From positions 1-14,173 of the forward strand of contig JBKBIN010000037.1 in NCBI GenBank assembly GCA_046296715.1: 14,173 nucleotides of DNA. The letters run 5' to 3'. Of the stretch, positions 1-14,173 are shown one piece after another. The DNA is from Candidatus Ratteibacteria bacterium. GTDB taxonomy: Bacteria > Ratteibacteria > UBA8468 > B48-G9 > JAFGKM01. The notes below the pieces were generated by a model that saw only the letters and a list, made by a program, of their open reading frames with translations, had not been told where the DNA came from and ran no database searches. How positions within the stretch are numbered: the first letter of the stretch is position 1; each line of letters opens with the position of its first letter. A program made the translations under genes and the position numbers.

Positions 1-1836
1 ATTGCTCATAGATATGCTGCTGTTGCTTGTGGACTTGGAGAAATTGGTTGGAATGGTTTATTTTTACATCCTGAATTTGGTCCAAGAGTCCGTCTTGTTA
101 CAATAATTACAAATGCAGAACTTTTTTCAGACCCTATGTATGATGGTGAAAAATTATGTGATAGATGTTTAGAATGTGTTAAAAATTGTCCGATAGATGC
201 ATTTAGAAAAGAGATAAAGAAAATAAATCAAATAGAGATTGGGGGTAAGGTTTTTAAATTCCCTGATACAAATAAATGGAGATGTGCTTGGGCTGAAAAT
301 TTTGGATTAAATCTTGCTTTGAAAATTCCTGAAAAAGTAGATGAGGATGTGATAATTGAAAATTTAGAAAAATATGGTTTTTTTAGTGGAGAGTTGGGTT
401 GGTGTCTTAAATTTTGTATGGTTCCTAAAAAAAGATATTATGATAAAAATTATTGTAAAGGACCCAGAAGGAAAAAAGAGAAAAAGAAAATAAAGATTGA
501 AGAAATAAAGAAAATTTTTGATAAATACCTGATTGATTTTTTGTCTATAAAAGATTTAAAATTTTTCAAAAATACAGTTAATCCTCAATTATATCTTCCA
601 GATGTCTGTTCAATAATTTCAATAGGAATTAAAAACCCGAAATTTTCTAATATTGAGATTGAAAATTATATAAAATATAGATTGATGAAATATGCTTCTT
701 TTGAGATTGCTCATTATTTTGATATAAATGGATATTCAGCAATAACCGATACAAAGATAGATAATAATTTGGTTGCTCATAAATCTGGTATCTGGCAGGA
801 AAATACATCTTTTTCAATAATTCTTGTAAGTGCAAAATTACCTCAAATAAACATTAAAAGAAAGATTAAAAAAGAAAAAATTGAAAAGGAAAAATTTAGA
901 GATTTCTGTAAAGAATATGGAGCAGATCTTGTTGGATTTTTTAACATAAAAAGATTCAATGAATTTAAAAATGAATTTCTAAAAAAAATTAAGTTGCCAG
1001 AACAAATTGAAAGAGGCTATGATATCTCGCCGATTTATAGACATACAAGCCCTACAATAAAAAAAGAAAAATTAAAATTAAAAGGGCCAAATGATTATTT
1101 AGAAGATGCAAAATCAGTAATTGTTATTGGACTTCATTATCCAGATGCAGTTATTGATTATGCAAAGATAACACCTGCAGAAACAGTTGGCCCTTATGCT
1201 TTTTGTCAGTTTGAATCATTAAATCTTTTAACAGATATTGCTTATAAAATTATTAAAAAACTGAATGATTTTGGATATAAAGGAGGCTATAGTTATGATT
1301 TAACTGGTCTTGCATCAAGTGTTTTAAGTTCAAGAGGACTTTTACCTGATAATAGAGCAAATTCTTATTCTGTTTTACTTTCAGGACTTGGTTATATTGG
1401 AAAAAATGGAGTTCCTATAACTAAACAATTTGGGCAAAGACAAAGATTTTTATCTATAATAACTGACTTTGAATTTGAAAATGATCCTCTTTATAATGGA
1501 GAAAATTTCTGTAAAAACTGTGATGAGTGTATTAAAAACTGTCCTACGAATGCAATAAAAGCGAAAGAGAGGAAAATTAAGATAGAAAATAAAATATTCC
1601 AAATACCAGTAATAGATGAGTTTTCATGTGATTGGGCAAAAAGATACGGGCTTGATGGAAAAGATGGAGTAAAATTTATGGGTATTGATACTAATTTTAA
1701 AGTTCCAGAAAAAAATAGAAAGGAAAAACTTATTGAAAATTTAATAAAAGTAAAATGGGGTGTTCAGAAAAGGCATTTAAATATATGTGAGGAATGTATA
1801 AGAAATTGTAAATATAAAGGGGGTAAAAAATGTTAA
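1..1836 (+). CDS. 5'-truncated multi-module RdhA/QueG-like cobalamin- and 4Fe-4S-dependent reductase (two Fe-S-bearing modules flanking a degenerate middle module)
   Basis: Frame 1 is open from base 1 (IAHRYAAVACGLGEIGWNGLFLHPEFGPRVRLVTIITNAELFSDP), so the track start at 136 is internal. Module 1 has CDRCLECVKNCP...WRCAW...CLKFC. The last module has YGADLVG, AKSVIVIG, GLGYIGKNG...FGQRQRFLSIITD, CKNCDECIKNCP...CDW...CEECIRNC. Confidence 0.85.
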   Translation: MAHRYAAVACGLGEIGWNGLFLHPEFGPRVRLVTIITNAELFSDPMYDGEKLCDRCLECVKNCPIDAFRKEIKKINQIEIGGKVFKFPDTNKWRCAWAENFGLNLALKIPEKVDEDVIIENLEKYGFFSGELGWCLKFCMVPKKRYYDKNYCKGPRRKKEKKKIKIEEIKKIFDKYLIDFLSIKDLKFFKNTVNPQLYLPDVCSIISIGIKNPKFSNIEIENYIKYRLMKYASFEIAHYFDINGYSAITDTKIDNNLVAHKSGIWQENTSFSIILVSAKLPQINIKRKIKKEKIEKEKFRDFCKEYGADLVGFFNIKRFNEFKNEFLKKIKLPEQIERGYDISPIYRHTSPTIKKEKLKLKGPNDYLEDAKSVIVIGLHYPDAVIDYAKITPAETVGPYAFCQFESLNLLTDIAYKIIKKLNDFGYKGGYSYDLTGLASSVLSSRGLLPDNRANSYSVLLSGLGYIGKNGVPITKQFGQRQRFLSIITDFEFENDPLYNGENFCKNCDECIKNCPTNAIKAKERKIKIENKIFQIPVIDEFSCDWAKRYGLDGKDGVKFMGIDTNFKVPEKNRKEKLIENLIKVKWGVQKRHLNICEECIRNCKYKGGKKC

Positions 1837-2744
1837 ATTCAAAAAAGGTTAAAGAGGTTGCAAAAAAGTTAGGAGCAGATTTAGTAGGAATAGCAGATGT
1901 AAATAGATTTGAAGGAGCACCAAAACAGATGGATCCAAGGTATATAAATCCAGATGCAAAGGCATTGATAGTTATTGGATTAAGAATACCAAGAGGGGCA
2001 TTGAGAGGTATTGAAGAAGGAACTTATTTTCTTTCCTACTCTTCTCAGGGATATGGAAGTATAAATATGATTTACAACCCTTTTATTCTTTATCATTTAA
2101 CAAGGTTTATTGAAGATAATGGATATGAAGCAACTCCTATACCAAATGATTACTATGACTGGCCTGCAATAACATATCATGATGGAAAATTAAAAGAAAA
2201 TTGGTCTCGTCCTGTATCTCCTGAAAAACCAATGCCTGACATCTTTATTCATTTCAGAATTGCTGCTTATCTTGCAGGACTTGGAGAGATTGGATATAGT
2301 AAACTTTTATTAACACCTGAATTTGGATCAAGACAGAGATTTGCTTGTATTTTAACAGATGCACCACTTGAACCAGATCCTATATACCAAGGACCTAAAT
2401 TATGCGATAGATGTATGGCGTGTGTAAAAGAATGTTCAGCAGGAGCAATAAGTAGAGATGAGGTGGTTAAGGTAAGATTTAAAGCATTAGGGACTGAAGT
2501 TGAATGGGGAAAACTTGATATAGATGCATGTACAAAAGGATTTCAAGGGTATGAACCATATAAAAAATATAATCCATTTATAGGCCAACCAAGTAAGGTT
2601 ATTATCTATTCAAGGGCACTTGAAGGAGCAAGAGGTTGTATAAGGGCATGTATGATACATCTTGAAAGCCAGGGAAAATTAAAGAATAAATTTAAAGGCC
2701 CATTTAGAAAGAGAAAGGCATGGTATATTGAATGGGAAAAATAA
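1830..2744 (+). CDS. RdhA/QueG-like cobalamin/4Fe-4S reductase, paralog 2 (304 aa)
   Basis: AKKLGADLVGIA, RGIEEGT, AGLGEIGYSKLLLTPEFGSRQRFACILTDAPLEPDP, CDRCMACVKEC, GCIRAC. AAGGGGG SD upstream; ATG overlaps the previous gene's stop. Confidence 0.85.
   Translation: MLNSKKVKEVAKKLGADLVGIADVNRFEGAPKQMDPRYINPDAKALIVIGLRIPRGALRGIEEGTYFLSYSSQGYGSINMIYNPFILYHLTRFIEDNGYEATPIPNDYYDWPAITYHDGKLKENWSRPVSPEKPMPDIFIHFRIAAYLAGLGEIGYSKLLLTPEFGSRQRFACILTDAPLEPDPIYQGPKLCDRCMACVKECSAGAISRDEVVKVRFKALGTEVEWGKLDIDACTKGFQGYEPYKKYNPFIGQPSKVIIYSRALEGARGCIRACMIHLESQGKLKNKFKGPFRKRKAWYIEWEK
2270..2327 (+). repeat. 58-bp exact direct repeat, copy 1 (copy 2 at 4208-4265)
   Basis: tcttgcaggacttggagagattggatatagtaaacttttattaacacctgaatttgga is identical in paralogs 2 and 3. 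Confidence 0.9.
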
Positions 2745-3757
2745 AATTTTCTGTTGGATATCAATTGTTAGAAGAAGAAAGTTTTTCTGATATTGTTGAA
2801 AGATATAAAGATAGGATTGAAGAGGTTTATTTTCCATGGTTAAATTTACCAACTGGAAGAGGACCTATTGCAGAAAAATCCGGATATATAAACTGGTCTG
2901 CACAGAAACAACTTGAATTTGAATTAAAAAAAATAAAAAAAATGGGAATAAAACTTAATTTGCTTCTTAATGCTTCATGTTGGGGTGAAAATTCTTTATC
3001 AATAAATCTTGCAAATCTTGTTTTGTCAGTTGTTGAATATTTAAATGAAAATATAGGAATTGATTCTATTACTGCTTTTTCTCCACTTGTTGCTTATATT
3101 ATAAAGAAAAATTTTGAAGATGTTGAAGTAAGAGCAAGTGTAAATATGAAAATAGGAACAACGAGAGCAATGGAACAGGTTAAGGAATTGTTTGATAGTT
3201 TTGTAATGCAGAGGGAATATAACAGAGATTTTGTAAGGATAGAGGAATTAAAAAAATGGTGTAATGAAAATGGGAAAAATTTAAGTATTCTTGTAAATAG
3301 TGGTTGTATAAATTTCTGTCCTGTTCAACTTTTTCATGATAATGTTATTTCACATGAAGTAGAAGTTTTTTCAAAAGCAAATATTTTAGAGGATATACCT
3401 GGGAATTGCTGGAGTTTTTACAGAAATACAGAAAACTGGAAATATTTAATTACAGGTTCCTGGGTAAGACCAGAAGATTTACATTATTATGAAGAATTTT
3501 TTGATACTGTTAAACTTGCAACAAGGATAAATCAAAATCCTGAAAAAGTTATAAAAGCATATTATGAAGAAAGATATGATGGAAATTTACTTGATTTGTT
3601 TGAGCCATCCCATAGCAAAATTTTATATCCATATATAATTGAAAATTCAAAATTTCCTGATAACTGGTTTGAAAAGATAATAAAATGTGGTAAGTTATGT
3701 CAGAATTGTTCATATTGTCAAGAAATTTTCAAAAAAGTTCTTGTTAAAAAATTTTAA
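2732..3757 (+). CDS. Peptidase-U32-family Fe-S protein (341 aa) with C-terminal Cys cluster
   Basis: U32-type motifs NLLLNASC, RASVN, REYNRD, ILVNSGCINFCP...H...C, WVRPEDL, KLATR, YDGNLLDL; C-terminal CGKLCQNCSYC. Overlaps the upstream gene by 13 nt. Confidence 0.75.
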   Translation: MGKIKFSVGYQLLEEESFSDIVERYKDRIEEVYFPWLNLPTGRGPIAEKSGYINWSAQKQLEFELKKIKKMGIKLNLLLNASCWGENSLSINLANLVLSVVEYLNENIGIDSITAFSPLVAYIIKKNFEDVEVRASVNMKIGTTRAMEQVKELFDSFVMQREYNRDFVRIEELKKWCNENGKNLSILVNSGCINFCPVQLFHDNVISHEVEVFSKANILEDIPGNCWSFYRNTENWKYLITGSWVRPEDLHYYEEFFDTVKLATRINQNPEKVIKAYYEERYDGNLLDLFEPSHSKILYPYIIENSKFPDNWFEKIIKCGKLCQNCSYCQEIFKKVLVKKF

Positions 3758-3770
3758 AGAGGAGATATAT

Positions 3771-4745
3771 ATGGAAATAACAAGTCAAATGGTAAAAGAA
3801 AAGGCAAGAAGTTTAGGAGCAGATAGAGTTGCAATTGGAAATATTGAAAGATGGGAAGGTGCACCAAAACAGATGGATCCAAAACAGATAATGCCAAATG
3901 CAAAAAGTGTAATAGCAATGGCTTTCAGAATTATGAGAGGGAGTTTAAGAGGAATAGAAGAAGGAACATTTTTCAGCAATTATTCTTCAATGGGTTATGG
4001 AGGTCTAACATATCTTTATATTCCAATCGTTGTTATAAATTTAAGTAAGTTTATAGAGGACTTTGGATATGAAGCAATACCTTATGGACATCAAAGCGAT
4101 TGGAGAGCAATTGATAATGAAGGGAATTTGAGAAAAAACTATAGTAAACCTGTTGCTCCTGGGAAAGCATATCCAGATGTTATGGTTCATTTAAGAATTG
4201 CTGGTTTTCTTGCAGGACTTGGAGAGATTGGATATAGTAAACTTTTATTAACACCTGAATTTGGACCAAGACAGAGGATAGGTATAGTAATAACAGAAGC
4301 ACCATTAGAACCAGATCCAATAATTGAACCAGGAACTTTATGTGATAGATGTATGGCGTGTGTAAAAGAATGTCCTGGAAATGCAATAAATCCAAAAGAA
4401 ACAGTAAAGGTAATTTTCCCTGGTCTTGGTGGTAAAGAAGTTGAATGGAATAAACTTGATTGTAAAGCATGTGATATTGCTTTTAGAGGAGGAAGACCAG
4501 TAAAACCAGAAGAAGATGATGGGTCTTTACCTGATTATACAGAACCAATGTATGGATATAAAATAAAACCAAATTACATAACTCCATTTTATAAAAAACC
4601 TCGTAATCTTTATAATGTAGGACAAGCAATTTGTGGAGCAAGATGTATGAGAGCATGTATGGTTCATCTTGAGAAAAAAAGGGTATTGAAAAATAAATTT
4701 AAAGAACCATTTAGAAAACAAAAATTATGGGAAGTTAAATGGTAA
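3771..4745 (+). CDS. RdhA/QueG-like cobalamin/4Fe-4S reductase, paralog 3 (324 aa)
   Basis: Start moved to ATG 3771, which follows AGAGGAG SD and aligns with the paralog N-termini. ARSLGADRVAIG, RGIEEGT, AGLGEIGYSKLLLTPEFGPRQR, CDRCMACVKECP, CKAC, CGARCMRAC. Confidence 0.85.
   Translation: MEITSQMVKEKARSLGADRVAIGNIERWEGAPKQMDPKQIMPNAKSVIAMAFRIMRGSLRGIEEGTFFSNYSSMGYGGLTYLYIPIVVINLSKFIEDFGYEAIPYGHQSDWRAIDNEGNLRKNYSKPVAPGKAYPDVMVHLRIAGFLAGLGEIGYSKLLLTPEFGPRQRIGIVITEAPLEPDPIIEPGTLCDRCMACVKECPGNAINPKETVKVIFPGLGGKEVEWNKLDCKACDIAFRGGRPVKPEEDDGSLPDYTEPMYGYKIKPNYITPFYKKPRNLYNVGQAICGARCMRACMVHLEKKRVLKNKFKEPFRKQKLWEVKW
4208..4265 (+). repeat. 58-bp exact direct repeat, copy 2 (copy 1 at 2270-2327)
   Basis: Base-by-base identity to 2270-2327, followed after one mismatch by 10 more identical bases (caagacagag). 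Confidence 0.9.
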
Positions 4746-4759
4746 AAAAGGAGAATAAT

Positions 4760-5611
4760 ATGGAAAAAGAAAAATTAAAAGAATTTGCAAAACAATTTAA
4801 AGCAGATTTGATAGGGATTGCAAGTATAGATAGATTTAAAGGAATAGATAAACAGCACCATCCAGAAAGTATTTTCCCAGAAGTAAAAAGTGTAATTGTA
4901 ATTGGGAAAAGAATAACAAGAGGTGCATTGAGGGGTATTGAAGAAGGAACTCAGTTTGGACTGTACAATTTATATGGTTATCAATGGTTAAACAATAGAA
5001 TTCTTGCCTTAACAACTTTTAAAATAGCCGAATTTCTTGAAGATAATGGATATGAAGCAGTTCCCTTGCCTGATATACCACACCAGATTCCACCTATGGG
5101 TATACCTGTTAAAAAAGGGAAACCTGCGCCAAATGTTTTAATAGATATTGAAGATGCAGCAATAAGGGCAGGACTTGGAGAGATTGGTTTTTGTGGAGTA
5201 TTTTTAACAAAAGAATTTGGACCAAGACAGAGATTTCAGGTAATACTTACAGATGCAGAGATTGAGCCAGATGAAATAAAAAAAGAAAATGTCTGTGATT
5301 TATGTAAAGAGTGTATGAAAATATGTCCACTTGGTGCAATAGATGGAAAAGAAAAAGAGATTAAGATATATGGGAAAAAGATGATTATAGCAGAAATAAA
5401 TTATGAATTATGTAAAAAATGTAAAAATGGAGTTTTCCTGAATATGTATTATGAAAAAGAAAAACCTGATAGAATTGCTGCATTATGTTCAAGGACCTGT
5501 CTTGCTCATCTTGAAGAAACCAAAAGAATAAAAAACTTATTTAATGAAAAATTTAGAAAAAGACCTGTATGGATGATTGATAAAAGTGGAGAAATTATAG
5601 AAGGAGATTAA
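4760..5611 (+). CDS. RdhA/QueG-like cobalamin/4Fe-4S reductase, paralog 4 (283 aa)
   Basis: ATG 4760 follows AAGGAG (4748-4753). AKQFKADLIGIA, VKSVIVIG, RGIEEGT, AGLGEIGFCGVFLTKEFGPRQR, CDLCKECMKICP, CKKC, LCSRTC. Confidence 0.85.
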   Translation: MEKEKLKEFAKQFKADLIGIASIDRFKGIDKQHHPESIFPEVKSVIVIGKRITRGALRGIEEGTQFGLYNLYGYQWLNNRILALTTFKIAEFLEDNGYEAVPLPDIPHQIPPMGIPVKKGKPAPNVLIDIEDAAIRAGLGEIGFCGVFLTKEFGPRQRFQVILTDAEIEPDEIKKENVCDLCKECMKICPLGAIDGKEKEIKIYGKKMIIAEINYELCKKCKNGVFLNMYYEKEKPDRIAALCSRTCLAHLEETKRIKNLFNEKFRKRPVWMIDKSGEIIEGD

Positions 5612-5612
5612 A

Positions 5613-6671
5613 ATGAAATTAACAAAAGAAATGATAAGGGAAACAGGTTATAAACTTGGACTTGATTTAATTGGATTTGCAAATATAGAAAGATTTAAAG
5701 ATGCACCAGAAAATATGAATCCTAAAAATGTCTTTCCAGAAGCAAAAACAGTTATAGTTGTTGGGAAAAGAATTTTAAGAGGTGGATGGAGAGGAATAGA
5801 AGAAGGAACAAACTGGATATCCTATACTTACTTTGATTATCACGGGCTTTTAAATACATTTTTTATACCTGAACCACTTTATCAACTTGCCTGTTTTATT
5901 GAGGACTTTGGATATGAGGCAGTTCCTTATTATCCAGGAGTGCCTGAAGCACAGAATCCAGATACAAAACCGCTGAGAAAAAATCAAATTCCTCCAGATG
6001 TTCATCTTGCCATAAGAATTGCTGCTATCTGTGCAGGACTTGGAGAAATTGGCTGGAGCAAGGTATTTTTAACAAAAAAATTTGGTCCAAGACAGAGATT
6101 GCATGCTATTATAACTGATTTAGAAATTGAACCGGATGACCTTGTAAAACCAGCAAGTATATGTAAAAAATGTATGGAATGTGTAAAGGATTGTCCTTCG
6201 TATGCAATCCCTCATATAAAAGAAAATAAAAAAATTCAAATAAAAATTGAAAATTATGTTTATGAATGGGCAGATATTGACCTTGGAAAATGTACATTGA
6301 GTTATCATGGAGGAGATTCAAGAGTTTCTCCTTTTATACATAAAGATTTTCCTGGTTGGAAGATAGATGCAAGAAAACAGGAATTTTCAGAAGAAACAGC
6401 ATATAAATTTTGTTGGACTTTATCAACAGATAGATGGAGAAAAACAAAAGAATATCCTTCTGGTTATATTATAGAAGGTCATGCAATGATACAAAAATGG
6501 GGAGAGGGTGGAAGTTATGGTATATGTGGCTCAAGGGGTTGTATGAGAAGTTGTTTTAATTATCTTGAGAAAAATTGTGTTATTGAGCAAAGATTTAAAG
6601 GAGGAGATTTTATAAAAAGGAAAAGATGGTTATTACCTTATAAAGTTAAAAGGAAAGATAAAGATGAATAA
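5613..6671 (+). CDS. RdhA/QueG-like cobalamin/4Fe-4S reductase, paralog 5 (352 aa)
   Basis: AAGGAG SD at 5601-5606. GLDLIGFA, AKTVIVVG, RGIEEGT, AGLGEIGWSKVFLTKKFGPRQR, CKKCMECVKDCP, GKC, CGSRGCMRSC. Confidence 0.85.
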   Translation: MKLTKEMIRETGYKLGLDLIGFANIERFKDAPENMNPKNVFPEAKTVIVVGKRILRGGWRGIEEGTNWISYTYFDYHGLLNTFFIPEPLYQLACFIEDFGYEAVPYYPGVPEAQNPDTKPLRKNQIPPDVHLAIRIAAICAGLGEIGWSKVFLTKKFGPRQRLHAIITDLEIEPDDLVKPASICKKCMECVKDCPSYAIPHIKENKKIQIKIENYVYEWADIDLGKCTLSYHGGDSRVSPFIHKDFPGWKIDARKQEFSEETAYKFCWTLSTDRWRKTKEYPSGYIIEGHAMIQKWGEGGSYGICGSRGCMRSCFNYLEKNCVIEQRFKGGDFIKRKRWLLPYKVKRKDKDE

Positions 6672-7806
6672 ACTGAGAGAAGTTGGTAAATACGATGTTA
6701 TAGTTGTTGGAGGGGGAATTGCAGGAGTAAGTGCATCTATTGCTTCTGCGAGAAATGGAATGAAAGTTTGTTTGATTGAAAAATTTTGTGCTCTTGGTGG
6801 ACTTGCAACTATTGGAAATGTCTGTGTTTATTTGCCTTTATGTGATGGTAAAGGGAATCAGGTTATTGGAGGACTTGCTGAAGAATTACTTAAACTTTCT
6901 ATTTCAGATGGATATAAGGATATTCCAAAGGCTTGGAAAGAGAAAAAAGACATAGAAGAAAGAAAAAAGGAAAGATATCAAGTTGAATTTAATCCTGTTT
7001 CATTTATGCTTTTGCTTGAAGAACTTGTTTTGAAAGAAGGAGTTGAAATAAGGTATGATACAAAGTTTTGTGGAGTAATAAAAGAAAATAATGAAATAAC
7101 AGGTCTGATAATTGAAGATAAAGAAGGAAGAGGTATTATTAAATGCAAGGTTGTTGTTGATGCAAGTGGAGATGCTGATGTGTGTTATTTTTCAGGAGAA
7201 GATGTAGTTTCAGTAGATGCAAATGTTCCAGTTGCCTGGTTTTTCTATTTTGATGGTAAAGAGGTTAAAAGAAATGTAGTTGGTGAAAGATATGACCCTT
7301 ATAATAAAAATGTTAAAGGATTTTCTGCAAATACTGCTAAAGAAATAACAGAGCAGATTATAAAATCAAGAGAGTATATAAGAAGAAAAATTAAACAATT
7401 GAGAGAACAAAATCCAAATATTTATCCTATTTCAATACCACTTATGCCAACACTTAGGATGACAAGAAGATTGAAAGGGAAAATAGAGTTAAGAGAAGAA
7501 GATAAAGGCAAAATTTTCCCTGATAGTGTGGGAATGACAGGTGATTGGAGAAAATCAGGGCCAGTTTACTACATTCCTTTTTCCTGTCTATATGGAGTTA
7601 AAACAAAAAACCTAATAACTTCTGGAAGATGTATTTCTGCTGAAAGTGCGTGGGACATTATAAGAGCAATCCCAACCTGTGCTTTAACAGGTGAAATTGC
7701 CGGAACTGCTTCTTCCTTACTTATTAAAGAAAAATCTGAAAGTTTTTCTTCTCTTGACATAAAAAAAATGCAAAAAATTTTAAATAAGCAAGGAGTAATC
7801 ATTTAA
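6664..7806 (+). CDS. FAD-dependent oxidoreductase (FAD_oxidored/PF12831-like, 380 aa)
   Basis: YDVIVVGGGIAG Rossmann motif, LIEK...LGGLAT, VVVDASGDADV, TRRLKG, YYIPFSCL...NLITSGRCISA, RAIPTCALTGEIAG. Overlaps the upstream gene (ATGAATAA). Confidence 0.85.
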   Translation: MNKLREVGKYDVIVVGGGIAGVSASIASARNGMKVCLIEKFCALGGLATIGNVCVYLPLCDGKGNQVIGGLAEELLKLSISDGYKDIPKAWKEKKDIEERKKERYQVEFNPVSFMLLLEELVLKEGVEIRYDTKFCGVIKENNEITGLIIEDKEGRGIIKCKVVVDASGDADVCYFSGEDVVSVDANVPVAWFFYFDGKEVKRNVVGERYDPYNKNVKGFSANTAKEITEQIIKSREYIRRKIKQLREQNPNIYPISIPLMPTLRMTRRLKGKIELREEDKGKIFPDSVGMTGDWRKSGPVYYIPFSCLYGVKTKNLITSGRCISAESAWDIIRAIPTCALTGEIAGTASSLLIKEKSESFSSLDIKKMQKILNKQGVII

Positions 7807-7912: not shown

Positions 7913-8074
7913 TTTCATAATGAACAGAATTTTTTTTTAAAGTTGAAGAACTTGTTAATGGTTTGGGATAGAACAGGATTCGTTTTGAAATTCCAAAAAG
8001 AGAAAGTAAAGAAGTTTTTAGTTACGATGAAAACCTATCTAAGAAAATATATCTTTGCTTTGACAGCAATTGAA

Positions 8075-10462
8075 ATGAATAGAATAATTTTAGGGATTTT
8101 AATATCTTTCTTAATTGGAATGAAAGGGTTGCTCTACTGCGAAGTTGATATAGAAATGTTTGAATATAAAGATATTTTAGAGGCAAGAAAAAACTGGATT
8201 CCTTGTGAAAAAAGTAGAGAGATAGAATTGAAAAAGGAAAAGGGGAGAAAACTAATAAAATTTATATTAAATTTCCCAGAAGTAGAAGATAGATGTTACT
8301 GGGATAAATTTGTTTGTCTTGATTTGAGTAATTTTGAGAAGTTTATAATTGAGATGAAATCTGAAAAACCTTCTTTGACAACAAACTGCACAATATATTT
8401 TGAAAGTCCTGGTGGTTGGTATAGATATCCCTTTTCAATAGATAAAGATGGCTGGGAAAAAATAATTATTCCAAAATCAAAGTTTAAAATTGAAGGGAAT
8501 CCTTCTGGGTGGAATAATATAAAAAGAATAAGGATTTCTTTCTGGAAAACAAATTCTGAACAAACAAATGTATATTTTAGAAGTTTAAAAGGGATTATTT
8601 CAGATTCAGAAATTGGCATTGTTTTCTGTGATACTGCAATTAAAAAAGGACAATATAGGCCAGATGATATAAATAGATATTTTTCTGATATGGCTGATAT
8701 TTTTGAGAAGATCGGAATAGAATATAAAACATTAAATCAGAGCAAGATAGACAACAAATTAAAAATTCTGATTTTTCCTTACAATCCAGTAATTACAGAT
8801 GAAGAGATAGAGAAAATTAAAATATTTGTTGAAAAAGGTGGGAAGATAATTTTTTTTTATTCAGCAAATCCTGAAATTTATAAAATTTTGGGTATAGAAA
8901 ATGCAATTTATAGAAAGGAAAGTTATTTAGGAGAATTTGATAGTATAGAGTTTGATAGAAATATAATTGATGGACTTCCTGAAAAAATCAAACAATCTTC
9001 TTGGAATGCTATGATACCCGAAAAAATAAGTGAAAATTCAAAAATTGTTGGATACTGGATTGATTCTGAAGGGAAATCAACTACTTTACCTTCTGCAGTT
9101 ATATCTAATAATGGATTTTATTTCTCCCATGTTTTGTTAAATAAGTATGAAGGTCAACAGATGATGGTTTCTCTTATTTTATATTTTTTACCAGAAAAGA
9201 GACAAGAAATATTTTCTTCAATAATTAAGAATACAGGAAAACTATCAGGTTTTCAGGATTTAGGAGAGACAAAAAGATTTATTGAAAAAAGATTGAAAGA
9301 TTTGCCGGATAGAAAAGCAAAAGAAGTAAAGAATTTTTTGAATCTTGCAATGAAAATTTATAAAGAAATCAAAGTTAATTACAATATTGAAGATTTATTC
9401 AAAATGAAAAAGGAACTTGAAGAAAATTTAAAAAAAGCATATTTTAGTTCTTTCAAAGGTAAAGAAAATGAGTTTAGGGCTGTTTGGTGTCATTCTCCTT
9501 TTGGAATTGGTGGAATTTCGTGGGAAGAAAGTATTAAAAAACTTAAAGAAAATAATTTTAATGCTATATTTGTTAATATGGCGAGAGCAGGTATTGCATA
9601 TTATAATAGTGAAATTTTACCAGTTACTCAAGAAATTAAAATAAAAGGAGATCAGATAGAACAATGTCTTTCTGCTTGTAAAAAATATAATGTTGAATGT
9701 CATATATGGAAAGTGAACTGGAATCTTTTTAATGCACCTATTGAATTTATTGAGAAATTGAGGCAGGAAAAAAGGTTACAGGTAAATAATGAAGGGAAGG
9801 AAGTTTTATGGTTATGTCCTTCAAATCCACTTAATTTTCAACTTGAGTTTGAATCAATGATTGAAATTGTTAAAAAATATGATGTCGATGGAATACACTT
9901 TGATTATATAAGATATCCTGATTCAAATTCTTGCTATTGTGAAGATTGTAAAAAAAGATTTGAAGAAAAATATAATGTTAAAATTGAAAAATGGCCAGAA
10001 GATGTAATAAAAGGGAATTATAAAGAAATTTATAAAATATGGAGACAGGAACTAATAACAAAACTCGTAGAGACAGTTAGCAAAGAAGCAAAAAAAATAA
10101 AACCTAATATAAAAATTTCAGCAGCAGTATTTCCAGATTATTCTGATTGTAAAGAAAAAGTTGGACAGGACTGGAAATTGTGGATTGAAAATGGATATCT
10201 TGACTTTGTTTGCCCTATGAATTATACAGATTCAAATTCAAAATTCAAAAATTATTTAATAAGACAGAAAGAAATAATAAAAAAGAAAATTCCTTTTTAT
10301 CCTGGAATTGGTGCTTATATTTTATCTCCTGAGGATGTTTTAAGGCAGATTGAAATATGTAGAGAACTTAAAACAGAAGGTTTTATCTTATTTGATTATA
10401 ATTTTCATCTTTTCAGAAACTTAGATTACTTTGGGATTGGCATAACAGGAAAAGATAAATAA
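8075..10462 (+). CDS. Probably secreted multidomain glycoside hydrolase-like protein with C-terminal GHL10 (YddW/DigH-like) TIM barrel; start uncertain
   Basis: MNRIILGILISFLIGMKGLLYC resembles a signal peptide. C-terminal motifs FRAVW, FNAIFV, ECHIW, WLCPSNP, IVKKYDVDGIHFDYIRYP, WRQELIT, KPNIKISAAVF, GQDWKLWIENGYLDFVCPMNY. The frame is open from 7910 and no clear SD was found, so the start is not certain. Confidence 0.75.
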   Translation: MNRIILGILISFLIGMKGLLYCEVDIEMFEYKDILEARKNWIPCEKSREIELKKEKGRKLIKFILNFPEVEDRCYWDKFVCLDLSNFEKFIIEMKSEKPSLTTNCTIYFESPGGWYRYPFSIDKDGWEKIIIPKSKFKIEGNPSGWNNIKRIRISFWKTNSEQTNVYFRSLKGIISDSEIGIVFCDTAIKKGQYRPDDINRYFSDMADIFEKIGIEYKTLNQSKIDNKLKILIFPYNPVITDEEIEKIKIFVEKGGKIIFFYSANPEIYKILGIENAIYRKESYLGEFDSIEFDRNIIDGLPEKIKQSSWNAMIPEKISENSKIVGYWIDSEGKSTTLPSAVISNNGFYFSHVLLNKYEGQQMMVSLILYFLPEKRQEIFSSIIKNTGKLSGFQDLGETKRFIEKRLKDLPDRKAKEVKNFLNLAMKIYKEIKVNYNIEDLFKMKKELEENLKKAYFSSFKGKENEFRAVWCHSPFGIGGISWEESIKKLKENNFNAIFVNMARAGIAYYNSEILPVTQEIKIKGDQIEQCLSACKKYNVECHIWKVNWNLFNAPIEFIEKLRQEKRLQVNNEGKEVLWLCPSNPLNFQLEFESMIEIVKKYDVDGIHFDYIRYPDSNSCYCEDCKKRFEEKYNVKIEKWPEDVIKGNYKEIYKIWRQELITKLVETVSKEAKKIKPNIKISAAVFPDYSDCKEKVGQDWKLWIENGYLDFVCPMNYTDSNSKFKNYLIRQKEIIKKKIPFYPGIGAYILSPEDVLRQIEICRELKTEGFILFDYNFHLFRNLDYFGIGITGKDK

Positions 10463-10577: not shown

Positions 10578-11024
10578 ATGAAAAAAGTATTGGTTGTTTA
10601 TTATACTCTTGGAGGTAATACAGAAAAAGCAGCAGAATTTATAAAAAAAGGAATTGAAAGTGAAGGTGTAGAAGTTGTGATGAAAAAAGGGGTAGATGCA
10701 ACTTGCGAAGACCTTTTAAATTGCGATGGGCTTGTAATTGGTTCACCTGATTATTTTAGTTATATGGCTGGAGGGCTTAAAGATTTTTTTGATAGAACAT
10801 ATTATCCATCAAAAGGTAAAGTTGAAGGTAAACCATATTTTGCTTTTTTAACTCATGGAGGTGGTGGTAAGGCAATTGAAAGTATTGAAAAGATTGCAGC
10901 AACTTTTAAATTTAAGAAAGTAATTGAACCAATACTTATAAAAAATGCACCATCAAAAAAAGATGGTGAAAAATTATTTGAGGCAGGGAAAGAATTTGCA
11001 AGAAAAATAAAGGATGAGTTTTAA
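10578..11024 (+). CDS. Flavodoxin-fold FMN protein (WrbA/flavodoxin family, 148 aa)
   Basis: VLVVYYTLGGNTEKAAE phosphate-binding loop, DGLVIGSPDY, LKDFFDR, GKPYFAFLTHGGGG. Confidence 0.85.
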   Translation: MKKVLVVYYTLGGNTEKAAEFIKKGIESEGVEVVMKKGVDATCEDLLNCDGLVIGSPDYFSYMAGGLKDFFDRTYYPSKGKVEGKPYFAFLTHGGGGKAIESIEKIAATFKFKKVIEPILIKNAPSKKDGEKLFEAGKEFARKIKDEF

Positions 11025-13302
11025 AAAAAGATTTAAGATTTTAATAAAAGGAAAGGTTCAAGGAGTTGGATTTAGACCTACTATTTATAGATATGCGAAA
11101 GAATTTGGTTTAACTGGTTTTGTTTGTAATACTGGAAGTGGTGTTTTCATAGAGATTGAAGGAGAAAAAGAGAAGATTAAAAGTTTTTTAAATAAGATAA
11201 GAAATCAGCCACCACCAAAAGCAGAAATTAAAGAAATTAAGATTGAAGAATTAAAAGTTAAAGAGGATAAAGAGTTTAATATAATTGAAAGTAAAGAAGA
11301 AGGGAAAGAAGTAGAAATCTCACCTGATATTGCAACCTGTAAAAAATGTCTTAAAGAACTTTTCAATCCAGATAATAGAAGATATCTATTTCCATTTATT
11401 AACTGCACTGATTGTGGTCCAAGATTTACAATTATAAAAAAAATCCCATATGATAGAAAAAATACAACAATGAATGAATTTATTATGTGTGAACAATGTA
11501 GAAGAGAATATGAAGATATTTTTTCAAGAAGATTTCATGCTCAACCGAACTGCTGTTTTGAATGTGGACCTGAAATAAAATTGATTGATATAAGTGGAAG
11601 GGAGGTTGTAAAAAATATTGAGAGTATAAAAGAAACTGCAAAATTTTTAGAAAATGGGAAGATTGTCGCTATTAAAGGTATTGGAGGATATCATATTGCC
11701 TGTGATGCTACAAATCAAAAGGTTGTTAAATTATTAAGAGATAGAAAGAAAAGGTATAGTAAACCTTTTGCATTGATGGCAAGAGATATTGAAACTATCA
11801 GAAGATTCTCCTTTCTAAACAAACAAGAAGAAAAAATATTAAAATCATGGCAAGGACCAATAGTCCTTCTTAAAAAGAAAAACAATTTATTACCAGAAGA
11901 GATTGCACCTATAAATAATTATCTTGGTTTTTTCCTTCCTTATACACCTATTCATCATCTTATATTTCATTTTAATAAAAATTTAAATGTCCTTGTAATG
12001 ACAAGTGGAAATTTTTCTGAAGAACCAATAATTTATGATGACAAAGAGGCTTTTAATAGATTAAAGGATATATGCGATTTTATATTAACCCATAATAGAA
12101 AAATTTATATTAACTGCGATGACTCTGTTTTAAGAGTTTTGAATAAGAAGATTTATTTTATAAGAAGGTCAAGGGGTTTTGTTCCATCTCCTATTGAAAT
12201 ACCTTATAATTCTAAAAAAAATATCTTTTCAGCAGGTGCAGATTTAAAAAATACATTTTCATTTACAAAAAATAATCAAGTTTTTTTAAGTCAACATATA
12301 GGAGACCTTGAAAATTTCCTTTCTATTGAATCATATAAAAAATCAATAGATCTTTTCAAAAATATACTTAAAATAGAGCCAGAAATAATTGTTTGTGATA
12401 TGCATCCAGGTTATTTTTCAAGCAAAATAGCAAAAGAAATATTTTCTAATAAAAAAATTATTGAAATTCAGCATCACTATTCTCATATAATCTCTTGTAT
12501 GGCAGATAATTTTTTAAGAAATCAAAAAGTAATTGGAGTATCTTTTGACGGGACTGGTTATGGAATAGATGGTAATATCTGGGGTGGAGAATTTTTAATA
12601 TGTGATTATGAAGGTTTTGAAAGGGCAGGACATTTAAAATATTTTCCACTTCAGGGAGGTGATATATCAATTAAAGAGGTCTGGAGAATAGGTGCAGTTT
12701 ATTTATACAAAATTTTTGGAGATGATTTTTACAATCTTAAAATTGATTTTGTTAATAAAATTGAAATAAAAAAATGGGAAATTATAAAAAAGGCAATTGA
12801 AAACAATATAAATATTTATTCGAATTCAAGTATTGGAAGATTATTTGATGCAATTAGTGCAATTTTAAATATTAGGGATGTTATTGATTATGAAGGACAG
12901 GCAGCAATAGAACTTGAAATGAAAGCAAAAAAAGATAAAAGAGTTGGAAAATTCTCTTATGAAATTAAAAAAGAAAATAATACATATATAATTGACCATG
13001 AAAATATAATAAAAGGTGTTGTAGAAGATCTAAGAAAGAAAAAAGAAATTGGGGAGATTTCATATAGATTTCATATAACAATTTCTCAGATTATTAAAGA
13101 TATGTGTAAAATTTTAAGGGAAGAGAAAGGTATAAACAAAGTTGCATTATCTGGAGGGGTATTCCAAAATATGATTCTTTTAAATGAAACAATAAATATA
13201 TTAAAGAAAGAAAAATTTGAAGTATTAATTCATCAAAAAGTCCCAGCAAATGATGGAGGTATTTCTCTTGGACAGGCAATTTATGGTGTATTTAAATCCT
13301 GA
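11014..13302 (+). CDS. hypF: [NiFe]-hydrogenase maturation carbamoyltransferase HypF
   Basis: GKVQGVGFRP acylphosphatase domain; zinc fingers CKKC...FINCTDCGPRF and CEQC...RRFHAQPNCCFECGP; AIKGIGGYHIACDA; VMTSGN; SQHIGDL; CDMHP; QHHYSH; FDGTGYG; SSIGRLFDA; LSGGVFQN; PANDGGISLGQA. Confidence 0.97.
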   Translation: MSFKKRFKILIKGKVQGVGFRPTIYRYAKEFGLTGFVCNTGSGVFIEIEGEKEKIKSFLNKIRNQPPPKAEIKEIKIEELKVKEDKEFNIIESKEEGKEVEISPDIATCKKCLKELFNPDNRRYLFPFINCTDCGPRFTIIKKIPYDRKNTTMNEFIMCEQCRREYEDIFSRRFHAQPNCCFECGPEIKLIDISGREVVKNIESIKETAKFLENGKIVAIKGIGGYHIACDATNQKVVKLLRDRKKRYSKPFALMARDIETIRRFSFLNKQEEKILKSWQGPIVLLKKKNNLLPEEIAPINNYLGFFLPYTPIHHLIFHFNKNLNVLVMTSGNFSEEPIIYDDKEAFNRLKDICDFILTHNRKIYINCDDSVLRVLNKKIYFIRRSRGFVPSPIEIPYNSKKNIFSAGADLKNTFSFTKNNQVFLSQHIGDLENFLSIESYKKSIDLFKNILKIEPEIIVCDMHPGYFSSKIAKEIFSNKKIIEIQHHYSHIISCMADNFLRNQKVIGVSFDGTGYGIDGNIWGGEFLICDYEGFERAGHLKYFPLQGGDISIKEVWRIGAVYLYKIFGDDFYNLKIDFVNKIEIKKWEIIKKAIENNINIYSNSSIGRLFDAISAILNIRDVIDYEGQAAIELEMKAKKDKRVGKFSYEIKKENNTYIIDHENIIKGVVEDLRKKKEIGEISYRFHITISQIIKDMCKILREEKGINKVALSGGVFQNMILLNETINILKKEKFEVLIHQKVPANDGGISLGQAIYGVFKS

Positions 13303-14173
13303 TTTTCATTTTCAATATTTTTAAGATTTTGCTTAGCAGGTTTAAAATTTGGGTCTTTTCTTAAAATCTCTTTCCAAATACTTTTTGCTTTTTCCTTTTG
13401 TCCAATCATAGCATAACAAAAAGCAAGGTCATTAAGTGTTTCAAGAGAATCCGGTTTTAAATTAAGTGATTGTTGATATAAAGGTATCGCATTTGTGTAT
13501 TTACCAATTGTTTTATAAAAAAATGCAAGATTCTGGACATTTTCCCATGTTAATGGATTCAAATTATAGGCAATATTTAAATGTTTTTCTGCAAGTTCTT
13601 TATTCCCTATATGAAAATACCCTATACCTAATAGAAGATGAGAAAAATCGTCATTTGGATCTAATGAAATTGTAATTTTAAAAAATTCTATACTTTTTTT
13701 ATAATCCCCTATATCATGAAAAATTCTTCCTGTTAGAAAATATGCCTGTCTATATGTGGGGTTTTTATCTATGCAGATTTTTAAGATATTAAGGATTTCT
13801 GAGATATCTTTTTTCTTTTCATTATAATATATTGTTGCTAAAGAACAGAGTGCATATGGGTCGTAAGGTTCAAGTTTAAGGATCTTTTTATAAAATTCTA
13901 TTGCAAGGTCTGTTTTTTTTAAATTTGCATAGCATCCAGCAATCGCATTATAAATTTTTTTCTTGTTTTTATAATATGGTTCTGTTTTCAAAAATATTTT
14001 CAGTGCCTTTTCATAATCCTTATTTTTGTAATGAAAAACTCCAATATTATAATAAATTTTCTCATTTCCAAAACCCCATTTCAATGTCTTTTCATAAAAT
14101 TTAATTTCATTATTCCAGTCATAGTTTCTCAAAATTGTTCTTGTTCCATATAGTAGAAATATTAAAATTGTCA
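13281..14173 (-). CDS. 5'-truncated membrane-anchored tetratricopeptide-repeat protein (TMTC-like C-terminus)
   Basis: The frame stays open beyond the track start (14132) to the window edge, reading TILIFLLYGTRTILRNYDWNNEIKFYEKTL: a hydrophobic helix end, an RNxxW motif, then tandem TPRs (YYNIGVFHY, YNAIAGCY, AYFLTGRIF, NLAFFY, LNDLAFCY). Confidence 0.8.
   Translation of the reverse strand, partial: TILIFLLYGTRTILRNYDWNNEIKFYEKTLKWGFGNEKIYYNIGVFHYKNKDYEKALKIFLKTEPYYKNKKKIYNAIAGCYANLKKTDLAIEFYKKILKLEPYDPYALCSLATIYYNEKKKDISEILNILKICIDKNPTYRQAYFLTGRIFHDIGDYKKSIEFFKITISLDPNDDFSHLLLGIGYFHIGNKELAEKHLNIAYNLNPLTWENVQNLAFFYKTIGKYTNAIPLYQQSLNLKPDSLETLNDLAFCYAMIGQKEKAKSIWKEILRKDPNFKPAKQNLKNIENENQDLNTP

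Follow-up and report, generated by a model that had tools for sequence, protein, structure and literature searches.

What would a bacterium do with five divergent relatives of reductive dehalogenases (RdhA) and epoxyqueuosine reductase (QueG), packed into one operon with a U32-like Fe-S barrel protein? The question is raised by positions 1–7806 of contig JBKBIN010000037.1 from a Candidatus Ratteibacteria bacterium (assembly GCA_046296715.1; genome 1.64 Mb, 28% GC, 92% complete), whose close relatives carry the source labels Candidatus Ratteibacteria or Omnitrophica; “the window” below means the whole stretch analysed, 14,173 nucleotides, which is the entire contig (C37). Class III cobalamin enzymes are credited with two known reactions, dehalogenation and epoxyqueuosine reduction, and further families are anticipated (PMC4646009). 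In our assessment this operon is real, is undescribed in the literature searched and belongs to this known enzyme class, with a fair chance of a new chemistry.

The operon and its gene products

The operon consists of seven open reading frames, all on the + strand, with successive gaps of −7, −13, +13, +14, +1 and −8 bp; we name them A (1–1836), B (1830–2744), U32 (2732–3757), C (3771–4745), D (4760–5611), E (5613–6671) and FAD (6664–7806), and the arrangement suggests co-expression. No RNA run containing the operon was among those listed. The close packing claimed in an initial annotation of this DNA is borne out by these coordinates (gaps of −13 to +14 bp on the + strand). Because the genes overlap or sit within 14 bp of each other there is no space for rdhB, and a scan of the five RdhA-like proteins revealed neither a twin-arginine motif nor a membrane helix (top 19-residue hydropathy, 1.41), in agreement with the earlier statement that both rdhB and a twin-arginine leader are lacking. 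The five RdhA/QueG-like genes counted there are present, but cluster domains of this fold number six, gene A being a two-domain fusion.

Gene A is truncated at its 5' end by the contig end and encodes the last 611 residues of a protein of about 740 amino acids (aa). It matches residues 132–739 of a 740-aa relative with 88% identity over 608 residues; in profile alignments, that relative has two cluster-bearing RdhA-like domains flanking a degenerate nitroreductase-like module. The first RdhA-like domain of A has seven cluster Cys, a Glu replacing the sixth, and the second has all eight. B (304 aa) belongs to a U32-linked clade and likewise has seven cluster Cys, its sixth ligand position being taken by Glu264 (9/9 rows); its Tyr75, Arg143 and Arg170 are kept. 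C (324 aa), whose start was reassigned to the ATG at 3771 preceded by GAGGAG, has the full eight-Cys, two-cluster set, and is both the most widespread member and the usual partner of the U32-like gene. D (283 aa) and E (352 aa) are the short and long members of a pair: D keeps the cluster Cys and has neither the conserved Tyr nor the lower-face Arg, and E has Tyr76 and Arg135 in all rows examined. The mutual identity of B, C, D and E is 35–52%. The remaining genes encode a 341-aa U32-like TIM-barrel protein and a 380-aa flavin adenine dinucleotide (FAD)-dependent oxidoreductase (PF12831).

The segment GLG(E/Y)IG...FG.R.R...T...D and the CxxCxxCxxxC motif, by which the initial annotation had recognized these proteins, are invariant across all six domains. 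The G-x-D-L-x-G start described with them is reproduced exactly by B, by E and by A in its C-terminal domain, but reads GADRVA in C and KADLIG in D.

Placement relative to QueG and RdhA

The five RdhA-like proteins score 33–78 bits against the QueG model TIGR00276 (cut-off 200 bits) and 47–86 bits against the RdhA model TIGR02486 (cut-off 160 bits). None matches the Pfam dehalogenase domain at E 0.01 or the QueG domain PF08331. The host has a QueG of its own, separate from the operon, which scores 267 bits against TIGR00276 and contains PF08331, and a QueA fragment lies at a contig edge elsewhere in the genome. The helical-repeat tRNA-binding domain is absent from the model of C, which ends in one helix and a coil, its match to QueG (5d6s) being confined to chain residues 1–247. 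The full YAxGxDYH motif is missing from the paralogs, as the initial annotation noted; in E, however, DYH occupies the column aligned with the QueG DYH. This triplet is found in 11/16 alignment rows of E, from the host order and one unclassified genome, and in 0/12 rows from distant genomes, where the Tyr alone is kept. The residue at the position of the catalytic Asp (D130/D134) varies among the paralogs, in a region where the alignment is ambiguous.

In both trees the paralogs lie outside the reference groups. In a FastTree phylogeny of 112 rows (9 QueG-type and 4 RdhA references, with a random subsample of C rows), each paralog class forms one side of a branch and all of them stand apart from the QueG and RdhA references (support 94, unstarred). 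A quick IQ-TREE analysis of 45 rows placed B, C, D and E together with clostridial triples in one clade (support 99), gave each of the two domains of A a clade of its own at 99, and grouped the U32-linked members in one subclade (support 89, unstarred); support for the family as a whole is 66, or 91 when one unrelated two-domain protein is included. A topology uniting E with QueG was rejected (approximately unbiased test, p-AU 0.0002), and one joining B, C, D and E with RdhA, represented by four references, was not (p-AU 0.11). With so few references (6–9 QueG and 4 RdhA sequences), the deep placement of the family is tentative. The view of the initial annotation that the paralogs are neither QueG nor classical RdhA agrees with the model scores (33–78 against 200 bits for QueG) and with both trees, and of the outcomes it named as refuting that could be checked by computation, such as a position inside the QueG clade or a gene combination conserved in no other genome, none was observed.

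Two further groups of sequences came to light in these searches. QueG-like proteins of 120–133 bits in five related genomes (L162–L165) have GRNYLFD at the position of the QueG DYH and are possibly a divergent QueG subtype. A Priestia megaterium plasmid (L135:2914–4257) encodes an RdhA/QueG-like domain, annotated as SCP2 sterol-binding and situated next to a TetR gene, which belongs to another, unassigned branch of the superfamily.

Fold, clusters and active-site residues

The predicted model of C (pLDDT 96.5, from an alignment of 143 rows) matches PceA (8q4h: Z 17.5, root mean square deviation 3.5, 228 aligned; 4uqu: Z 17.1), QueG (5d6s: Z 16.7) and NpRdhA (Z 15.9) to much the same degree, matches that Foldseek also returns; CblC (Z 8.4) and CblD (Z 7.0) are more distant. 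The structural matches span both the cobalamin module and the ferredoxin module, and profile alignments of all six domains with QueG have probabilities of 99–99.8%. On the predicted model, the proteins have the fold of class III cobalamin enzymes, in which a two-cluster ferredoxin module comes after a nitroreductase-like one. Conservation is high throughout the cobalamin module and in the residues around it, and binding of a cobamide and of two clusters would be expected. All eight cluster Cys are present in the window copies of C, D and E and in the second domain of A; among orthologs some of the positions vary. B and the first domain of A have seven, with Glu at the sixth ligand position. 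By the assignment made for QueG, that position belongs to the cluster adjoining the cobamide (PMC5175355).

Conservation around the expected corrin site differs between the paralogs. A Tyr common to QueG and RdhA lies above the corrin (PMC4646009); it aligns with Y76 of C (113/143 rows), Y75 of B and Y76 of E, and is found in neither D nor A. PceA pairs this residue, its Tyr246, with Arg305, a counterpart of which is described as missing from QueG (PMC4646009); at the Arg305 position all six domains have Arg, as do 134/143 rows of the alignment, so that by alignment B, C and E keep both members of the pair. A second Arg stands seven residues before the first Gly of AGLG in B (9/9), C (83/83) and E (16/16 near and 12/12 distant rows), and is missing in window D and in the second domain of A. 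Going by sequence spacing, we tentatively map this Arg, in B, C and E as well as in A's first domain, to QueG Arg141; two aligned QueG rows have Val and Lys there. In B. subtilis QueG, Arg141 blocks the lower cobalamin face (PMC5175355). The paralogs thus differ in their active sites, the Tyr and the lower-face Arg being kept in some and absent in others. From this pattern of residues, E is probably the catalytic subunit of the D-E pair, and D probably a non-catalytic partner with an electron-transfer or structural role. The idea that Cys145 of D ligates the cobalt of its partner was dropped: the residue is invariant in 15/15 near rows but found in 1/13 distant rows.

The U32-like protein

Assignment of the U32 gene was less direct, as its product scores 17.6 bits against PF01136, below the Pfam cut-off of 22.4, and no NCBIfam U32 model matched among 142 members of its family. 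The U32 identity given in the initial annotation is nevertheless supported by the fold: the predicted model (pLDDT 93) is closest to Mk0906 (5d88; Z 18.8, the next match having 12.8; Foldseek 1.7e-11), and on this model the protein is a triosephosphate isomerase (TIM) barrel of the U32 superfamily. It is the sole U32 match in the host genome.

The Cys residues of this protein are extremely well conserved: C83, C192, C196, C226, C319, C323 and C326 are invariant in 142/142 rows and C329 is found in 141. Four of them lie in the barrel and four form a C-terminal CX3CX2CX2C motif, a layout that suggests two metal sites, one of the Fe-S type within the barrel and another at the C-terminus. The motif of most U32 families is CX6CX15CX3/4C (PMC6747719); it is absent here, CX3C standing in place of CX6C. 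C192 aligns, at low probability, with the first Cys of the HGAxC motif. Glu161 is the corresponding landmark of RlhA (PMC5727448), and in a weak alignment its position is taken by Leu or Ile. Among longer proteins we found no U32-RdhA fusion, the two matches both being other fusions, which is weak evidence; a complex prediction for C and the U32-like protein (score 0.00, mark 0.32) is no evidence either way.

Conservation and two separable arms

The window gene order recurs in the host order, in locus L029 with D split into two frames, in L016 and L018 with an extra FAD gene separating A from B, and in L019 and L024 without C. Split copies of D or B (L029:6057–6997, L039:4588–5070, L022:9865–10853) reflect either decay or assembly error. 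Beyond the host order we examined the best 80 of 189 loci, chosen for a C-like gene, from Lentisphaerae, Kiritimatiellae, Planctomycetota, Armatimonadota, Clostridia, Spirochaetes and Anaerolineales. A U32 gene adjoins C in 36/80 of these loci and lies within the locus in 47/80; in the remaining genomes (33/33) it is found elsewhere, mostly as a single copy. A minimal unit of C and U32 occurs as a two-gene module.

Among 40 relatives of the host, U32 is found in 23/25 genomes with a B/C-type gene (E<1e-74) and in 0/15 without one, and some of these 15 carry A, D and E. An even draw of 199 Clostridia, leaving out the centre genome and one unscored genome, gave 15 with the U32-like gene (E<1e-100), all of which have the RdhA/QueG-like family; three of the 18 family carriers are without U32, and 181 genomes have neither, two of these with weak matches to longer proteins. 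All three U32-less carriers have the D-E pair and two also have A. In each of 12 distant D-E loci, selected by E or by the pair, D lies ahead of E, and an IclR or AraC gene lies beside the pair in eight. A is present in 16/22 genomes with an E ortholog and in 3/28 without, lack of E being judged from the family profile only for 14 of the 28. The significance of such co-occurrence is overstated because kin genomes are not independent. Within the host genus the U32-like gene is found in 5/10 genomes and QueG in 10/10.

The operon therefore joins two separable arms, a U32-linked arm of B and C and a U32-independent arm of A with the D-E pair. The gene set that the initial annotation hoped to find elsewhere does recur in the host order, and as units across phyla, but its view of one fixed five-enzyme pathway does not survive, since the arms occur apart in many genomes. 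Nor does its inclusion of the FAD oxidoreductase: this gene follows E in several genomes of the host order and is not core elsewhere, its family occurs in 15/101 clustered sources, and we regard it as local to the host lineage and outside the conserved core. We found no informative solved structural relative of the FAD protein, and apart from this PF12831 member no fused or adjacent catabolic-type reductase was seen.

The family is large, with 2440 proteins at E<=0.001, distant relatives included, and 767 clusters at 50% identity up to E 1e-10; it spans at least six phyla, with up to 17 matches per genome, and its members are usually labelled QueG (epoxyqueuosine reductase), ferredoxin or hypothetical. 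A clostridial version (L191–L194) consists of U32 and three paralogs, accompanied in some cases by a gene for a cupin or a radical SAM protein; the three paralogs form a sister clade of B/C.

Regulation and surroundings of the operon

Contig C43 ends inside an IclR gene (10633–11313, L142) whose product shares 84% identity with the IclR encoded ahead of A in the nearest relative. This gene is probably the head of the window operon; if the two contigs join in this way, the gap between C43 and C37 would be about 480 bp. A palindrome just before the IclR start (C43:10633–10647) is related to TTCA-N7-TGAA, a pattern found upstream of IclR in 16/39 regions. IclR lies within 32/80 C loci, and IclR or AraC in 51/80. 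Upstream retrieval, as suggested in the initial annotation, yielded this probable regulator; no cobalamin riboswitch was seen in nine loci scanned. A wider regulon was sought by operator search and rejected: the own genome has one exact site, itself a source of part of the pattern, and in five other genomes the intergenic sites outside family loci lead to unrelated genes.

Before the IclR gene, C43:1057–10497 encodes Mrp/Mbh-type membrane subunits, HypA, HypB and a hydrogenase maturation protease, and HypF follows the operon (window 11014–13302), so that the operon appears as if set within a hydrogenase maturation region. An IS481-like fragment lies at C43:279–644. Downstream of FAD, window 7943–10462 encodes a GHL10-family hydrolase-like protein (PF02638), the true start of which is probably near 8078, where a hydrophobic leader begins; it was rejected as a core member, as it follows the operon in one other locus only (L018) and its own promoter-like sites are not above chance counts. 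A flavodoxin gene (10578–11024) overlaps the hypF start, and both were likewise rejected as core operon members. The window closes with a TPR protein on the − strand (13281–14171), cut by the contig end.

Host cobamide economy and gene neighbours

The host genome encodes CobU, CobT, CobS, CbiB and an aminotransferase of cobamide salvage and completion, together with a cobalamin riboswitch and a periplasmic binding protein adjoining an adenosyltransferase; judged by this gene complement, the host salvages and completes cobamides. It also has 21 URO-D/MtaA-like matches above the Pfam cut-off, an unexplained expansion for 1.6 Mb, as well as two RACo-type corrinoid activators and one stand-alone corrinoid protein next to dnaK.

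Directly behind C in 16/80 loci (for example L080:11524–13536) lies a gene for a family of 670-aa proteins that have no Pfam match and resemble GH42/GHL10 enzymes by language-model features; this family is a candidate source of the substrate. The richest context for a guess at the substrate is an operon in L078, L080, L082 and L085 with the order IclR – SIS – 419-aa probable beta-propeller – GH78-like – 670-aa family – (URO-D) – C – 670-aa family. Genes connected with sugars are frequent among the neighbours, which also include GFO oxidoreductases, esterases and sulfatases.

Proposed function and alternative explanations

The function that we favour, with confidence evenly balanced between acceptance and doubt, is that of inducible cytoplasmic cob(I)amide/[4Fe-4S] reductases which act on a small substrate, probably derived from glycans, by breaking one of its carbon-heteroatom bonds. 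In favour of it are the fold, the Tyr and Arg positions, the cobamide genes of the host, the IclR or AraC genes at the loci, the patchy, accessory presence (U32 in 5/10 genomes of the genus against QueG in 10/10) and the glycan-related neighbours. A ferredoxin or flavodoxin would supply low-potential electrons, through the two [4Fe-4S] clusters, to a base-off cobamide; Co(I) would then perform a two-electron reductive cleavage, most likely of a C-O bond, with a proton delivered by the Tyr/Arg pair. The substrate would be small and soluble, probably liberated from glycans or from other complex organic material, and it probably also induces the operon through IclR. In one arm, B and/or C would work with the U32-like Fe-S barrel, which may carry out a coupled step or supply electrons; in the other, E would be catalytic and D a cluster-bearing relay, with the fused A as a two-domain counterpart of the pair. 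A bolder proposal, which we advance only tentatively, is that the paralogs make up a functional class of their own, the third among class III cobalamin enzymes: multi-subunit systems, linked to a U32-type Fe-S enzyme of a new kind, for B12-dependent reductive C-O cleavage on sugars or their derivatives. The reactions might be deoxygenation, ether or O-methyl cleavage, or the opening of an anhydro ring or epoxide, and the paralogs would be split into catalytic and electron-relay subunits, some with Glu-ligated or 3Fe clusters.

Several observations weigh against this proposed chemistry. The redox chain of B and of the first domain of A is, by its residues, not of the textbook type, because Glu sits at a ligand position of the cobamide-side cluster. 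Class III enzymes are described as having no cobamide-binding motif (PMC4646009), and the equivalences of the Tyr and of Asp134/Asn272 come from alignments of gapped regions and not from residue-level superposition. Cobalamin riboswitches do not separate carriers from non-carriers of the family (22/27 against 14/20, p 0.49; in Clostridia 17/18 against 14/20, p 0.09). Neither a transporter nor a downstream enzyme is shared between phyla; the 86 scanned neighbours are mixed, with many housekeeping genes among them, and the count of 16 loci with the 670-aa protein is a raw one, mostly from related Lentisphaerae/Kiritimatiellia. The glycan neighbourhood is a lead only, because the hosts are rich in glycan genes in general and sugar-related neighbours may reflect lifestyle.

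Other functions would account for part of the data. It is unlikely, in our view, that these are cytoplasmic reductive dehalogenases for natural organohalides, serving catabolism or detoxification with paralogs for different substrates. Such a role would be in keeping with the counterparts of PceA Tyr246/Arg305, of which QueG is reported to lack the Arg (PMC4646009), with TIGR02486 scores slightly above those for TIGR00276, with the unrejected tree joining B, C, D and E to RdhA (p-AU 0.11), with cytosolic RdhA-like genes reported near IclR/MarR regulators (PMC12219181), and with transporter-less units of regulator and enzyme, which suit a diffusible substrate. Yet the proteins reach 47–86 of the 160 bits required, without a Pfam dehalogenase domain, a twin-arginine leader, RdhB or a fused reductase. 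In rumen and gut Clostridia the family is common (18/199 sampled), and it needs a U32 partner, which is not known from any RdhA. We consider it less probable again that cobamide binding has been lost and that the true catalyst is the U32-like enzyme (for instance a hydroxylase or dehydroxylase independent of oxygen), which the proteins would serve as Fe-S redox complexes or as a source of electrons. Characterized U32 proteins are indeed [4Fe-4S] oxygen-independent hydroxylases (PMC6747719, PMC5727448), the U32-like gene is usually single copy and never found without the family (15/15 Clostridia), and D and the second domain of A are without the lower-face Arg; but a plain electron carrier would not need the highly conserved nitroreductase-like cobalamin module, and the arm of A and D-E exists without U32.

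Corrinoid handling for the many corrinoid-dependent proteins of the host, whether by CblC/CblD-like dealkylation or decyanation, by repair or by remodelling, ranks below the loss of cobamide as an explanation. In its favour, the fold is common to CblC (Z 8.4) and CblD (Z 7.0), A has an extra, degenerate module, the URO-D/MtaA-like expansion (21 matches), the two activators and the corrinoid protein described above are present in the host, and URO-D flanks C in a few loci. Against this, the nine scanned loci lack a cobalamin riboswitch, the regulators of the family are IclR or AraC, the cob genes are found on other contigs and do not figure among the annotated neighbour families, and copy numbers of up to 17 matches per genome are easier to reconcile with substrate diversification than with a housekeeping role. 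It is highly improbable that the paralogs are redundant or specialized QueG-type tRNA modification enzymes, even though sources often label them epoxyqueuosine reductase, E has DYH in the host lineage, and QueG was not seen at E<=1e-30 in the 13 genomes of one related family: the host has, away from the operon, a true QueG (267 bits) and a fragment of QueA, the paralogs score 33–78 bits without PF08331 or the tRNA-binding helical domain, the clade of E with QueG was rejected (p-AU 0.0002), and DYH is not kept outside the lineage.

Should B12-dependent reductive C-O cleavage prove correct, it would supply a missing step of anaerobic glycan breakdown in bacteria of rumen, gut, sediment and hot springs; a function for the family would also give a role to a U32 subfamily beyond RNA and quinone hydroxylation. 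The particular contribution of the window operon is that it unites both arms under one IclR, complemented by the counts that separate them.

Comparison with known systems

The initial annotation knew of no described system with this composition, and we likewise found no description of the gene set or its hosts in the literature searched, which consisted of main texts, mostly of non-subscription papers. In a survey of cold-seep RdhA the new clade is membrane-anchored, and neither U32 nor Ratteibacteria is mentioned in its main text (PMC12219181); a further source is concerned with the expression of reductive dehalogenases (PMC13101508).

Among the known systems, PceA (PDB 4UQU, 8Q4H; TIGR02486) shares the nitroreductase-like cobalamin module and the two-cluster ferredoxin module (Z 17.1–17.5), with counterparts of Tyr246/Arg305; the operon proteins, however, are 280–350 aa long, 23–26% identical, far under the family cut-off and without a twin-arginine leader or RdhB, their second Cys motif is CX3-4CX3C or degenerate, and they occur in paralog pairs as well as with a U32-like partner. 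NpRdhA (PDB 4RAS/6ZXU; Z 15.9) and BhbA of Comamonas 7D-2 are cytoplasmic with the same core fold, and NpRdhA resembles gene A in having a second, degenerate module copy in profile alignment. Unlike them, the operon family is a separate clade without a fused NAD(P)H reductase, its hosts are anaerobic fermenters, and A has two cluster-bearing domains. QueG (PDB 5D08, 5D6S; TIGR00276, PF08331) has the same core fold (Z 16.7), the Tyr above the corrin and the Arg that we map to Arg141, but the operon proteins lack its helical tRNA-binding domain, PF08331 and the conserved DYH/VDTG pair, and are accessory and regulated. CblC/CblD (MMACHC/MMADHC) have the nitroreductase-like cobalamin fold in common with them (Z 7–8.4) but no ferredoxin module, at 8–13% identity. 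As for the barrel, it belongs with Mk0906 (PDB 5D88), UbiU/UbiV, RlhA and TrhP, and is nearest to Mk0906; its differences are the lack of the CX6CX15CX3/4C motif and of a counterpart of Glu161, the C-terminal Cys motif, and cobalamin-fold proteins as its partners.

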